DNA from: Escherichia coli
Lineage (GTDB): Bacteria; Pseudomonadota; Gammaproteobacteria; Enterobacterales; Enterobacteriaceae
Reading direction: 5' to 3' (one strand)
Assembly (NCBI RefSeq): GCF_003334355.1
Contig: NZ_QOWP01000056.1
Length of the DNA: 10,236 nt
The notes beneath the pieces were generated by a model. The model did not search any database, was not told the origin of the DNA, and saw only the letters and a program-made list of their open reading frames with translations. Below are positions 4,132 through 8,955 of this stretch, piece by piece (the stretch's first letter is position 1; every line of letters starts with the position of its first letter). The translations under genes and the position numbers were made by a program.

Positions 4132-4207
4132 GCCGATATAGCTCAGTTGGTAGAGCAGCGCATTCGTAATGCGAAGGTCGTAGGTTCGACTCCTATTATC
4201 GGCACCA
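4132..4207 (+). tRNA. thrW: tRNA-Thr (anticodon CGU)
   Basis: 76 nt, GCCGATATAGCTCAGTTGGTAGAGCAGCGCATTCGTAATGCGAAGGTCGTAGGTTCGACTCCTATTATCGGCACCA. It has a cloverleaf, a CGT anticodon, a GGTTCGA T-loop and an encoded CCA. Confidence 0.97.
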
Positions 4208-4372: not shown

Positions 4373-5587
4373 GTGAAACTCAATGCCCGTCAAATAGACA
4401 CAGCCAAGCCAAAAGAGAAGGCTTACAAGCTGGCCGATGGTGGCGGTTTGTATCTCTTGGTAAAACCTAATGGAGGTAAATACTGGCGACTTAAATATCG
4501 TGTAGCTGGTAAAGAGAAGCTATTGGCACTAGGTGTGTATCCTGAGGTTACTCTAGCCGATGCTCGGGCAAAACGTGAAGATGCGAAAAGAGGTATCGCT
4601 GGTGGTATCGATCCGATGGAAGCGAAACGAGAGGAAAAGATTGCCCGGGAAACGCAGTTAAACAACACCTTCAAAGATATTGCCCTTGAGTGGCACAGCA
4701 GCAAATTAAAAAAATGGTCTGCTGGTTATGCTTCAGACATCCTCGAAGCCTTCAACAAAGATGTGTTCCCTTACATTGGCAAAAAACCAATCGCCGAAAT
4801 CAAACCACTTGAACTTCTGAATGTGCTGCGGCGCATTGAGGGGCGCGGTGCTACAGAAAAAGCCAAAAAAGTGAGGCAGCGGTGCGGGGAAGTTTTCCGC
4901 TATGCAATAGTCACTGGTCGCGCAGAGTATAACCCTGCACCAGACCTTACTAGCGCGATGCAAGGCCATGAATCTAATCATTACCCTTTCCTTACAGCCA
5001 AAGAATTACCTGATTTTTTCAAGGCATTGTCCAGTTACTCAGGAAGCGCATTGGTTGTTATGGCGGCTCGTCTACTGATTATCACAGGCTTGCGGACTGG
5101 CGAACTACGTGGCGCATTATGGGATGAAATTGATTTCAACAAGGCTCTCTGGGAGATACCCGCTTCACGTATGAAAATGCGGCGGCCTCATATTGTGCCA
5201 TTGTCTGAGCAGGCTCTTTCGCTTATTGGGAAGATTAGAGAAATAACAGGCAATTACCCTCTTATGTTTCCCGGGCGCAATGATCCAAGGAAAACAATGA
5301 GTGAGGCCAGCATAAACCAAGTGTTTAAGCGCATTGGCTACGCTGGACGTGTAACTGGTCATGGGTTCCGGCACACTATGAGTACGATTTTGCATGAGCA
5401 GGGCTATAACACCGCGTGGATAGAAACGCAGCTCGCTCACGTTGATAAGAACTCAATTCGTGGCACATACAACCATGCGCAATATCTGGATGGAAGGCGG
5501 GAGATGCTTCAATGGTATGCCGACTATATGGATTCTCTCGAGCATGGCGGAAATGTGGTGCATATGGTGTTTGAAAAACACGCATGA
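4373..5587 (+). CDS. P4-family tyrosine integrase (tRNA-associated)
   Basis: 404 aa, GTG start with GGAGG at 4359-4363. The N-terminus MKLNARQIDTAKPKEKAYKLADGGGLYLLVKPNGGKYWRLKYR is typical of P4-type integrases. Catalytic contexts are GLRTGELR, HGFRHT and RGTYNHAQY. It lies directly beside thrW. Confidence 0.93.
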   Translation: MKLNARQIDTAKPKEKAYKLADGGGLYLLVKPNGGKYWRLKYRVAGKEKLLALGVYPEVTLADARAKREDAKRGIAGGIDPMEAKREEKIARETQLNNTFKDIALEWHSSKLKKWSAGYASDILEAFNKDVFPYIGKKPIAEIKPLELLNVLRRIEGRGATEKAKKVRQRCGEVFRYAIVTGRAEYNPAPDLTSAMQGHESNHYPFLTAKELPDFFKALSSYSGSALVVMAARLLIITGLRTGELRGALWDEIDFNKALWEIPASRMKMRRPHIVPLSEQALSLIGKIREITGNYPLMFPGRNDPRKTMSEASINQVFKRIGYAGRVTGHGFRHTMSTILHEQGYNTAWIETQLAHVDKNSIRGTYNHAQYLDGRREMLQWYADYMDSLEHGGNVVHMVFEKHA

Positions 5588-6238: not shown

Positions 6239-6442
6239 ATGGCTAATTACAATTCATTAATTCGTCTCTCTGAAGTTCAAAGGCGAACTGGTTATAGCAA
6301 AGCATGGATTTATCGTCTTATTAGTCAGGGGAGGTTCCCTAAACAGGTAAAAATTGGAAGTCGGGCAATTGCTTTTGTTGAGTCTGAAATAGATGAATGG
6401 ATTGAGAAGTGTATATTAGAATCTAGAGACGAGGTGGCCTGA
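6239..6442 (+). CDS. alpA: AlpA/Vis-family phage transcriptional regulator / excision factor (MerR-like HTH)
   Basis: 67 aa. LIRLSEVQRRTGYSKAWIYRLISQGRFPKQVKIGSRAIAFVESEIDEWI is the AlpA-family pattern. AGGA lies 10 nt upstream of the ATG. It is the first gene of a co-directional operon. Confidence 0.9.
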   Translation: MANYNSLIRLSEVQRRTGYSKAWIYRLISQGRFPKQVKIGSRAIAFVESEIDEWIEKCILESRDEVA

Positions 6443-6885: not shown

Positions 6886-7719
6886 ATGAACATCGAAAAA
6901 AGCAGATTAATTTCTGAGGCCGCCCCTCATCTGAACGCCTCTCTGGGCACAATTAACGGTAATGAATTTGCCGCAATTGTCCCGGTTATTCCTGGTCATA
7001 TCGGTGGGCGTGAAACCAATATTGTTAGCGCAAAAGCGTTACACAAAGCGTTGGGCGTGGGAAAAGACTTCTCTACATGGATCACTGATCGCATCTCTGA
7101 ATATGACTTCACCATTGGGCACGATTACTCAGTCCATAAAACAATTTCCCCAAATTTGGGGAAAAGCCCGAATGGCGCGGCTTACAGCAAGATTAAGCAG
7201 TCTGGCAGACCCGGCAAAGACTATCTGTTAAGTGTCGGAATGGCGAAAGAACTGGCAATGATCGAACGCAATGATCAGGGTCGCGCTATCCGCCGTTATT
7301 TCATCCAGTGCGAGGAAGAATTACAGCGTAGCGTGCCTGAAATCGCCGCCCGCTATCGTCGCCAGCTAAAAGCCCGTATCAGTGCCGCAAACAACTTTAA
7401 GCCAATGTGCGATGCGCTGAATATGGCCCGTGCCGAGATGGGTAAAACGACGCAGCAACACCACTACACAAACGAGAGCAATATGATTTCTCGTATCGTT
7501 CTTGGTGGGCTAACTGCTAAGCAGTGGGCGCGGATAAATGGCTATTCTGGCGAACCTCGCGACCATATGAACGCAGAACAGCTTGAGCACCTCTCATATC
7601 TCGAAAGCACCAATATCACGTTAATTGATATGGGCATGGAATATGAGCAGCGCAAAGGAGAACTCACCCGCCTGTCGCAACGCTGGCTCGCCAAGCGTCT
7701 GGAGGTGGTCAATGTCTAA
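6886..7719 (+). CDS. Phage antirepressor-like protein (AntA/AntB-type N-terminal domain)
   Basis: 277 aa. SAKALHKALGVGKDFSTWITDRISEYDF...GRPGKDYLLSVGMAKELAMIERNDQGRAIRRYFIQCEEE matches the AntA-domain pattern. GGAG lies upstream. Confidence 0.85.
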   Translation: MNIEKSRLISEAAPHLNASLGTINGNEFAAIVPVIPGHIGGRETNIVSAKALHKALGVGKDFSTWITDRISEYDFTIGHDYSVHKTISPNLGKSPNGAAYSKIKQSGRPGKDYLLSVGMAKELAMIERNDQGRAIRRYFIQCEEELQRSVPEIAARYRRQLKARISAANNFKPMCDALNMARAEMGKTTQQHHYTNESNMISRIVLGGLTAKQWARINGYSGEPRDHMNAEQLEHLSYLESTNITLIDMGMEYEQRKGELTRLSQRWLAKRLEVVNV

Positions 7720-7894
7720 GCCAACAGGAACACCACAACCACAAAAACGCTACAAAGATGCCCACGGAGCACTCGTTACTGTCGAAAGCGTGTCTCACAA
7801 CCGAGTGACGTTTTATCGCGACGGGTATCAATCGCCATGCGTACAACCGCTGGCGCGTTTCATGAAGGAGTTCGCGGAGGTTAACAAATGCTAA
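7712..7894 (+). CDS. Small DUF4222-like protein (60 aa)
   Basis: Internal ATG at 7712 of track ORF 7625..7894, preceded by GGAGGTGG (7701-7708) and overlapping the upstream stop (ATGTCTAA). YKDAHGALVTVESVSHNRVTFYRDGYQSPC resembles DUF4222 proteins (recalled). Confidence 0.7.
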   Translation: MSKPTGTPQPQKRYKDAHGALVTVESVSHNRVTFYRDGYQSPCVQPLARFMKEFAEVNKC

Positions 7895-8955
7895 CCGTCC
7901 AGAAGAAGACATTTTCACTGGCTGGTATGTCGCCAAAATCCAGCAATATGACGGCAAAGTCAGGCATTAATACAGCAGATACAAGCAAAGTTTATCATTT
8001 GCTGGTGGTCGGAACGGATGCCTTAACCATATCAGAAATCTCGGGCGATGATATTAGCATTGAGAAGGTCAGCGGCTGCGCCAGAAAATTTCTGGTCGTA
8101 GATGATGTCTTCCGCTCGTGTAGTGACTCCACAAAAACATTCGTCCACGCGCGTGACGTTAACGAAATGAGCGCGATGTACTGTGCATCTGGTGCTTCCA
8201 ATAGCGAGTTTTCGGAGTCCATAAAAAAGAGCTTGCCGTTATGCGGCAACACGGTTTATGGTTATAAGGCACCTCATAAAACGGGTGCCGGGATTGGCGT
8301 CCTGGTAAATCGAATGGCGACATATGACGCGCCGAGCGTCTTTTTTTATGTCGTAGGTCTGACTCACCCATTTTTTGGGCGTTGGTGTATAATCCAGCGC
8401 CTTTGTCAATCAATGGTGGCTCAGGCAGGGGCTTCTTCGGAAGCGCCGGTATCCATTCGAGCCGGTTACGCCAACCCTGTCTGGGCTACCACCAGCGAAA
8501 TTGGCGTTTCCGGTGGTAGCGTTACATGCTATCGAATGGAGGCTGCCACATGCTGGCTACTACCCCTACCCAAAAACCGCAATTTATCTGGATTATCGCC
8601 GCAGTTCGCCGCGATTGCCCGACAATTACCGCCAAAATTCATCATATTGCTGCCGAGTCTGAACGCGATGCTCGCCGTTCTCTGGTGCGCGATCACGTCT
8701 GCTTTTTTGCTGGTCGTATCCGCATGGAGGTGGCACATGATTAAAACCTACGATGTGCATATGGATCCCCTCGAACGCACAAGCCAGATCATCACACTGA
8801 CAGAAGTGATTAACGACATTCTGGTGAGCAACTCTCCCTCACGAGACGAAAGACTGAAGGCGTTACTCGCGATATTGGATCTCGCCGTTCGTGACGTTCA
8901 TTTCCTGCTGGAAGGTGGCGAAATGCCAGGAAAAACGGGGGCAACCAATGAATAA
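7888..8955 (+). CDS. Long open frame (355 codons). The 5' start is well supported, but the frame is probably a composite rather than one protein.
   Basis: The ATG at 7888 has GGAGG (7876-7880) at 7-nt spacing and overlaps the DUF4222 stop (ATGCTAA). The N-terminal ~120 aa look protein-like ([36 protein letters not shown], wHTH-like). The frame then crosses a terminator, a TATAAT box, a structured RNA region and the icd-like gene without meeting a stop. The true 3' end is undetermined. Confidence 0.3.
8326..8347 (+). terminator. Intrinsic-terminator-like hairpin with a T7 run
   Basis: GACGC (8326-8330), GCCGA loop, GCGTC (8336-8340), then TTTTTTT (8341-8347). Confidence 0.5.
8388..8393 (+). 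promoter_or_regulatory. Perfect -10 hexamer TATAAT upstream of the structured RNA region
   Basis: TATAAT at 8388-8393 with TG just upstream. I found no good -35, so the promoter call is weak. Confidence 0.3.
8400..8525 (+). ncRNA. Candidate c4 (P1/P7) / CI (P4)-like antisense immunity RNA; boundaries approximate
   Basis: Three hairpins. The first is GCTTC-TTCG-GAAGC (8431-8444, UUCG tetraloop). The second has a CCGG stem (8446-8449 / 8462-8465) presenting the loop ATCCATTCGA (8451-8460). The third is GCTACCACC (8485-8493) / GGTGGTAGC (8512-8520). The second loop is complementary to sites at 8309-8317 and 8531-8540. An icd-like gene follows, as in P1 immI. Confidence 0.55.
8550..8744 (+). CDS. 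Icd-like protein (host cell division inhibitor family of P1/P4-like elements)
   Basis: Internal ATG at 8550 of track ORF 8526..8744, with GGAGG (8538-8542) 7 nt upstream. [21 protein letters not shown]...[23 protein letters not shown] matches my recollection of Icd-like proteins. Confidence 0.8.
   Translation: MLATTPTQKPQFIWIIAAVRRDCPTITAKIHHIAAESERDARRSLVRDHVCFFAGRIRMEVAHD
8737..8955 (+). CDS. Small hypothetical protein (72 aa), probably an independent start within the long open frame
   Basis: The ATG at 8737 has GGAGG (8726-8730) 6 nt upstream and overlaps the icd-like 3' end by 8 nt. The sequence is helical. Confidence 0.55.
   Translation: MIKTYDVHMDPLERTSQIITLTEVINDILVSNSPSRDERLKALLAILDLAVRDVHFLLEGGEMPGKTGATNE

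Follow-up and report, generated by a model that had tools for sequence, protein, structure and literature searches.

A probable P4-type antisense immunity leader in an Escherichia coli satellite prophage

Introduction

What is the role of a short target sequence that stands in front of an open reading frame (ORF) of only 10 codons, when that frame itself encloses a terminator? The question is raised by positions 8309-8356 of a stretch of DNA from Escherichia coli (contig NZ_QOWP01000056.1), which was analyzed over its full length of 10,236 nucleotides and is referred to here as the window. The sequence ATCGAATGG occurs exactly twice in it, at 8309-8317 and at 8531-8539, and the loop complement CCATTCGA has a single occurrence, at 8453-8460. 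An initial annotation had tentatively proposed that an antisense RNA presenting this loop controls translation of the 10-codon frame (the mini-ORF) and, through it, formation of the terminator. Comparison with related loci assigns another role to the same parts. As judged from homology, positions 8309-8356 very probably form the 3' half of the leader RNA in a P4-type RNA-based immunity module, and the locus is a further case of the known P4/P1/IsrK antisense immunity module that is covered by existing Rfam models. The promoter, RNAs, target boxes, terminator and reading frames discussed for this module all lie on the plus strand.

Results

The leader RNA at 8269-8347 is of the isrK family, or P4 seqA type, with conserved hairpins. 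The Rfam model RF01394 (isrK) matches 8269-8346 over its full length (1-77 of 77 positions) with 67.1 bits (gathering score 50, E value 5.7e-13), and the seqA region of phage P4 reaches 60.8 bits with the same model. The leader is made up of a first hairpin (8269-8288), a second hairpin (8289-8304) that presents a target box termed a1, a single-stranded linker with a second box, b1, and an intrinsic terminator. This arrangement of two 5' hairpins, linker and Rho-independent terminator is supported by minimum free energy and centroid structures and by a terminator scan, and both hairpins show compensatory changes among relatives. Downstream, a C4 or P4-CI-type antisense RNA occupies 8409-8496 and matches RF01695 (C4) with 79.5 bits (gathering score 45), compared with 74.9 bits for P4 CI. 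A third Rfam family, RF03163 (c4-a1b1, "a1, b1 targets of C4 antisense RNA"), models the two hairpins; P4 scores 44.1 bits with it, just under the threshold.

Two published comparisons connect these families, as isrK was equated with the P4 seqA RNA by Barquist et al. (PMC3632133) and IsrK was described as a structural homolog of the P4 seqA RNA by Hershko-Shalev et al. (PMC4825925). At the level of the nucleotide alignment, the window and P4 loci are colinear with a mean column identity of 76%, and the stretch from b1 through the linker to the terminator is almost identical, the segment GGCGACATATGACGCGCC..GCGTCTTTTTTT being nearly the same in P4.

The C4-type RNA carries two recognition segments, each with a target on its upstream and on its downstream side. 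The first, b' (CCATTCGA, 8453-8460), lies in a 12-nucleotide hairpin loop and is complementary to b1 (TCGAATGG, 8310-8317), the core of seqA. The second, a' (ACGCCAA, 8468-8474), is an internal single strand and is complementary to a1 (TTGGCGT, 8294-8300), which is located in the loop and on the 3' side of hairpin 2; this second target had been overlooked by the initial annotation. The downstream, seqC-like target at 8501-8542 repeats both boxes, with a2 (TTGGCGT) at 8501-8507 and b2 (TCGAATGG) at 8532-8539, and b2 overlaps the Shine-Dalgarno (SD) sequence GGAGG (8538-8542) of an icd-like gene, for which the SD pairing energy is -9.3 kcal/mol. The claim that both copies of the longer repeat are complementary to the loop at 8452-8460 stands for the downstream copy, which forms 9 bp with A8540 pairing with U8452. 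For the upstream copy it has to be reduced to 8 bp (T8310-G8317), as A8309 faces G8461 and is unpaired. Similarly, the shared segment ATTGGCGT further upstream lies at 8293-8300 as first described, and its second copy, originally placed at 8499-8506, is shifted by one base to 8500-8507.

The pairing was examined by covariation. Related loci were drawn from 120 viral contigs that carry the C4 loop-stem pattern GCCGGTATCCN6GCCGGT, and the sample comprised 87 distinct loci with a downstream b2 and 14 different loop sequences; this pattern already contains the first two loop bases (both C), and with them the last two bases of the boxes (both G) are fixed, so that these positions are uninformative. 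As a control, loops were paired with the upstream regions of loci having a different loop. The b1 box is a perfect complement of the loop of its own locus in 81 of the 87 loci, compared with 0.4% in the mismatched-locus control, and because this match is so far above the control, the upstream and downstream repeats represent more than chance. For a1 and its own a', pairing is perfect in 71 of 87 loci and has one mismatch in another 14, and the control gives 6% perfect matches. When 83 loci were counted position by position, between two and four Watson-Crick pair types were present at six of eight b positions and at all seven a positions, with almost no unpaired cells. Together with the isrK scores of the window and of P4 seqA, the b1 result bears out the initial suggestion that the upstream copy is a second, seqA-like target.

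The box sequences are themselves variable between loci. Among the related loci from viral contigs (L004-L123), 14 b' types and 11 a' types are found in 24 combinations, and the b' type CCATTGAG, for instance, occurs with ACGCCAA, CTGCAAA, TTCCTAC, GTTCCAA and AGACCAA. This apparent reassortment of a and b boxes suggests that P4-like satellites exchange their immunity specificity in modules, and the box types probably set apart the immunity types of P4-like elements that reside together. Both b boxes in the window (TCGAATGG) also hold an ATG (8314-8316 and 8536-8538), and both of these lie in the frame of the long eta-like ORF described below, at a spacing of 222 nucleotides or 74 codons. An ATG inside the b box is limited to this type and CTCAATGG and is absent from the P4 box; it is probably incidental.

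The promoter predicted in front of the leader at 8233-8262 consists of a -35 element TTGCCG (8233-8238), an 18-nucleotide spacer and a -10 element TATGGT (8257-8262) that ends six bases before the first hairpin, with a predicted start at about 8269. It aligns position for position with TTGCCT-18-TATAGT of P4, which we take to be PLE, and the elements CTTGC and TAT.GT are conserved over about 70 related loci. The position of b1 downstream of this promoter also matches the place of seqA in P4.

The intrinsic terminator at 8326-8347, which was returned by the terminator scan, has the stem GACGC/GCGTC (8326-8330 and 8336-8340), the loop GCCGA and a run of seven T (8341-8347). All 34 sequence variants have a terminator hairpin followed by six to eight U, with a first stem pair that alternates between G-C and C-G in a compensatory way, and P4 carries a near-identical hairpin and U-run at the same position, presumably the t1 terminator. 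In the nascent RNA, a competing hairpin could form between GGCG (8316-8319) and CGCC (8330-8333), with a computed energy of -5.1 kcal/mol versus -8.2 kcal/mol for the terminator. The GGCG segment contains the last two bases of b1, and its hairpin excludes that of the terminator. Its bases are invariant, so that no covariation test of this hairpin is possible.

Two further signals lie close to the promoter and the terminator. A perfect TATAAT at 8388-8393 is located between the terminator and the C4-type RNA, about 15 nucleotides before the Rfam C4 match, and is preceded by no good -35 element. It is kept in the sub-clade of the window despite varying flanks (TGTATAAT, GATATAAT, TATATAAT, TGGTATAAT) and is missing in P4 and in other sub-clades. 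On the minus strand, a terminator-like dyad at 8233-8249 (TTGCCGCATAACGGCAA then GCTCTTTTTT) overlaps the -35 element and the spacer of the PLE-like promoter, and a weaker dyad, TGCC/GGCA, is found at the equivalent place in P4. This dyad could be an operator or could be due to chance.

The whole leader is crossed by an eta-like ORF of 355 codons (7888-8955), annotated in RefSeq as "ash family protein" and preceded by the SD sequence GGAGGT (-10.2 kcal/mol). Its start overlaps the stop of a DUF4222 gene, the window and its close relatives share the N-terminal motif SLAG, and the frame spans the promoter, the isrK-like RNA, the terminator, the C4 RNA and, out of frame, the icd-like gene. From the 5' end of the isrK-like RNA to b2, this frame is free of stops in 59 of 59 unique P4-like regions, and the other two frames contain stops in 59 and in 58 of the 59. 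Within the variable spacer between the terminator and the C4 RNA, stops occur in 0 of 49 cases in the eta-like frame versus 18 and 28 of 49 in the others. The distance from b1 to C4 in P4-like loci is 120, 123, 135, 141, 153, 171 or 180 nucleotides, all multiples of three. The lambdoid relatives, which have no such open frame, show distances of 94, 95, 96, 98, 99 or 109 nucleotides. The possibility that the frame is open by chance can be rejected in view of its 59 stop-free regions, the stops in the other frames and the indels in multiples of three. Conservation of an Ash peptide as a protein was likewise considered and dropped, as there is no excess of changes at third codon positions. The eta-like frame is thus kept open, and its peptide sequence is unconserved; selection is seen on the frame and on stop codons only, and what appears to matter is that the ORF is translated, not the peptide that results.

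Our scan of P4 places an eta-like ORF between -290 and +301, counted from the loop stem, and this ORF shares the frame of the 65-amino-acid kil. Forti and colleagues (1999) reportedly described P4 eta, which the long ORF of the window resembles, as a frame that opens before PLE and has kil as its end, and whose translation on transcripts from the upstream promoter prevents immunity-specific termination. In the window and 10 related loci, the spacer between the icd SD and its ATG is 1 nucleotide shorter than in P4, which puts the eta-like frame out of frame with icd; here it meets no stop across the 64-codon icd and continues in the frame of a 72-amino-acid gene (8737-8955). In the close relatives L091 and L106, the eta-like frame and icd are in frame, as in P4. 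The fused form may be under selection or may be a tolerated frameshift.

The locus is part of a larger insertion. The gene order in the window begins with phoE, proB and proA of the E. coli chromosome, followed by tRNA-Thr (4132-4204) and an island. The first gene of the island, a tyrosine recombinase of the P4 integrase type (4373-5587), starts about 170 nucleotides after tRNA-Thr, and the two mark the left end of the island. Genes for an AlpA-type regulator (6239-6442), an AntA-family protein (6886-7719) and the DUF4222 protein (7712-7894) precede the eta-like ORF. The first translated gene after the leader (8550-8744) encodes an Icd/Kil-like protein of 64 amino acids (NCBIfam NF033153 phage_ICD_like, 71.7 bits) and is followed by the 72-amino-acid gene, in whose frame the 355-codon ORF ends. 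In strain M10, the same DNA is annotated with a pseudo "ash" fragment and with a "host cell division inhibitor Icd-like protein" (window 8550-8744). Downstream of the 355-codon ORF are small ORFs and then a TOPRIM/DUF927 primase. This layout of tRNA-Thr, integrase, AlpA, Icd-like gene and TOPRIM/DUF927 primase is that of a P4-like satellite prophage, here inserted at tRNA-Thr. The prophage carrying the locus is common in E. coli, and 80% or more of the window is present in 227 genomes. In strain BKQ37E, genes for "phage DNA ejection / injection protein" lie past the primase, which suggests a composite element.

Discussion

The homology and architecture of the locus, the complementarity and covariation of its boxes, the conservation of its terminator and its open frame are observations from which a mechanism can be proposed. 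The PLE-like promoter (8233-8262) would start an RNA at about 8269, and the leader would fold into two hairpins, present a1 and b1, and then reach a modest intrinsic terminator. Transcripts that end there would constitute an isrK/seqA-type RNA of about 78 nucleotides, and those that read through would contain the C4/CI-type RNA (8409-8496) with b' and a', followed by a2 and b2 (8501-8539), which recur across the SD of the icd/kil-like gene. Homology with P4 suggests that the C4/CI RNA would pair with the upstream copy and raise termination at 8347, which would restrict how much of this RNA is made and how much polymerase enters the operon. Pairing of the same RNA with a2 and b2 would block translation of icd/kil, and transcription would stop before the replication genes. 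It might be speculated that antisense pairing at b1 acts by removing the GGCG/CGCC competitor of the terminator hairpin. For transcripts initiated further upstream, ribosomes on the 7888-8955 ORF could cover the boxes and prevent the hairpin from forming, which would make these transcripts insensitive to immunity. By analogy, we infer both the direction and the size of the effect of pairing on termination, as well as the role of eta-like translation.

P4-style premature termination, which the initial annotation had put forward as a plausible outcome, is the natural reading of the isrK/seqA match, the near-identical stretch in P4 and the conserved hairpin and U-run. Several points nevertheless weigh against this interpretation. 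The promoter at 8233-8262 agrees with the consensus at 8 of 12 positions and was not reported by the promoter scan. Both the 5' and the 3' end of the leader RNA at this locus are placed from sequence, the stability of the isrK-like RNA relative to shuffled sequence is not significant (z = -0.63) and carries no weight as evidence, and RF03163 gives only 17.9 bits at 8256-8308 (E value 0.046), below its gathering score of 46.7. The GGCG/CGCC hairpin is a speculative candidate, from a folding model, for how pairing at b1 would raise termination. Should the TATAAT at 8388-8393 be active, C4 would be made independently of read-through and the autoregulatory part of the scheme would be weakened. Finally, no third-position bias is found in the eta-like frame (entropy 0.90, 0.98 and 0.92 by codon position), and its translation is indicated only by the lack of stops, by the lengths of the indels and by the SD sequence.

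It could be asked whether the mini-ORF (8324-8356) is itself the regulatory element, in the manner of leader-peptide attenuation, with a ribosome on it melting the terminator and antisense pairing at b1 blocking its start so that the terminator forms. The parts needed for this are present as initially described, namely, an ATG at 8324, an in-frame TAG at 8354-8356, the enclosed hairpin (8326-8340) and the T run (8341-8347), and pairing at b1, 7 to 14 nucleotides before the ATG, would block access of a 30S subunit. P4 has the same ATG at the stem as the window, and it is found throughout the window's closest sub-clade, in which the preceding base varies (T, C or G) and the ATG stays. Comparison over a wider range of loci argues otherwise. 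An ATG just 5' of the stem occurs in 14 of 45 unique b1-terminator variants (11 of 38 P4-like and 3 of 7 lambdoid-like), the others having CAG, CTG, ACA and so on, and all 31 variants without it retain b1 and the terminator. Where the ATG exists, the mini-ORF has 10, 12 or at least 16 codons, and the shared peptide "MTR.ASFF" is simply the translated terminator. The GGCGAC after b1, which had been regarded as a purine-rich box serving the mini-ORF, is conserved with or without a following ATG. The SD of the mini-ORF had already been called weak, and its pairing energy of -2.8 kcal/mol confirms this in comparison with -9.3 for icd, -10.6 for the 72-amino-acid gene and -10.2 kcal/mol for the 355-codon ORF. 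The start lies 2 nucleotides from the stem; only about +10 of the mRNA would have emerged when polymerase reaches the U-run, and a 30S subunit would come too late. In P4, Briani and colleagues (2000) reportedly found termination at t1 to depend on CI and seqA and to be enhanced by CI RNA in vitro with no bacterial factor. Lack of conservation is also what the initial annotation had itself named as grounds for refutation, and by that measure the mini-ORF fails. We consider attenuation by the mini-ORF very improbable; the mini-ORF is probably incidental, with no necessary part in the switch. The idea that a translating ribosome melts the terminator can probably be retained in another form, as the ribosomes in question are likely to come from upstream on the eta-like ORF, on upstream-initiated transcripts, and not from the mini-ORF. 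For the sub-clade of the window and P4, one could still imagine that the AUG at the stem is used and that a bound 30S subunit competes with the hairpin and with C4/CI pairing at b1. This appears highly doubtful to us; if true, use of the AUG would add a translational layer to the control of a t1-type terminator, and we know of no such layer described in the P4 literature.

Another view, in which the functional product is an Ash family protein and the RNA motifs, boxes and hairpin are by-products of coding, can draw on the RefSeq annotation of 7888-8955, on a Pfam Phage_ASH match of 105 bits and on a frame that is always open. That match is, however, confined to amino acids 124-232 (nucleotides 8257-8583), exactly the region from isrK to C4; substitutions lack third-position bias and compensate for one another in RNA pairing, and the lambdoid relatives retain the RNAs and lose the frame. 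In P4, the cI/"ash" function was reportedly shown to be an RNA. CI is described as an RNA processed from an untranslated transcript (PMC4825925). A protein as the sole functional product thus seems extremely improbable. A different alternative keeps the RNAs and changes the sign of their action. Following the logic of Salmonella IsrK, the terminated RNA (8269-8347) would mainly act in trans as a decoy or remodeller that pairs with the C4-like segment of the long transcript or with free C4 RNA, frees the downstream SD and switches the operon on. The leader RNA and IsrK are members of one Rfam family, and a1 b1 and a2 b2 are near-equal competitors for a' b' (8 + 7 bp versus 9 + 7 bp). In Gifsy-1, the short RNA binds the transcript that reads through and turns on orf45-anrP translation, and the complementary STnc1160 is processed downstream (PMC4825925). 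The context here is nevertheless P4-like and not lambdoid, with an icd/kil-like gene in place of the orf45-antirepressor arrangement and with an eta-like ORF that is absent from the lambdoid relatives, and the seqA-type element is needed to establish P4 lysogeny and to maintain P4-like prophages in Salmonella Typhi (PMC3632133), which points to a repressive role. Activation in trans as the main function is possible but on balance unlikely, although it is compatible with P4-type repression, and the two modes may coexist.

The analysis of the eta-like frame also has a bearing on annotation. The Phage_ASH match and, as a separate observation, several PHROG "transcriptional repressor/regulator" families coincide with the translation of the isrK-plus-C4 region, and what these families capture appears to be an open frame maintained across RNA genes and not a conserved protein. 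As a more remote reading, the "Ash" family might be no more than a ribosome-transit frame that is kept open across two RNA genes for the purpose of anti-termination, with no selection on the peptide. Two RNA genes, together with a promoter and a terminator, go unseen under the RefSeq label of a 355-amino-acid "ash family protein".

Among known systems, the leader of the P4 left operon, the order of which we take to be PLE, seqA, t1, cI (CI RNA, seqB), seqC and kil/eta, is the closest in the order of its parts. Both RNAs fall into the same two Rfam families, the promoter has the same position, the linker and terminator are nearly identical in sequence, a downstream box lies over the SD of an Icd/Kil-like gene of about 64 amino acids, and both RNAs are crossed by a long ORF that begins before the promoter. 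The boxes themselves differ, with TCGAATGG as the b box here and TTCACAGG in P4, and TTGGCGT as the a box here and GTGAGAA in P4. In the window, the spacer between terminator and C4 is 45 nucleotides shorter, and there is a possible extra -10 element at 8388-8393. The eta-like ORF has an N-terminal extension of 123 amino acids, is out of frame with icd and continues to 8955, and the upstream genes are those for AntA and DUF4222, whereas P4 has vis alone.

The immI region of P1 and P7 (a1 b1, c4, a2 b2, icd, ant) shares the two-box antisense recognition, the targets on both sides of the RNA and the downstream copy that covers the icd SD, and P1-like phages match window positions 8252-8352 by blastn. 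It differs in that RF03163, as noted, falls below its gathering score in the window, and in that the cargo here is replication genes and not an antirepressor. Attenuators of the trp, his and pheA type resemble the locus in having a short leader ORF that overlaps an intrinsic terminator. Unlike theirs, the mini-ORF is unconserved, has a weak SD and starts 2 nucleotides from the stem instead of well upstream; it contains no regulatory codons, and no conserved antiterminator can be demonstrated for it.

IsrK of Gifsy-1 is alike in its two 5' hairpins, its linker and its partly read-through Rho-independent terminator (PMC4825925), in a complementary structured RNA that lies immediately downstream, and in its family, RF01394, for which the window exceeds the gathering score. 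In contrast to the locus in the window, IsrK belongs to a lambdoid prophage, lies upstream of an antirepressor gene and has been shown to activate translation in trans, and there is no eta-like ORF, the lambdoid-type relatives having stops in every frame between isrK and b2. In the lambdoid-type loci L020, L033, L052, L054, L056, L065 and L068, no frame is open across isrK, and a frame instead opens about 42 nucleotides (81 nucleotides in L065) before the C4 loop stem and leads into an ORF of about 229 amino acids that ends at +783 to +798. This arrangement recalls the coupling of orf45 and anrP in Gifsy-1, in the form of one continuous frame.

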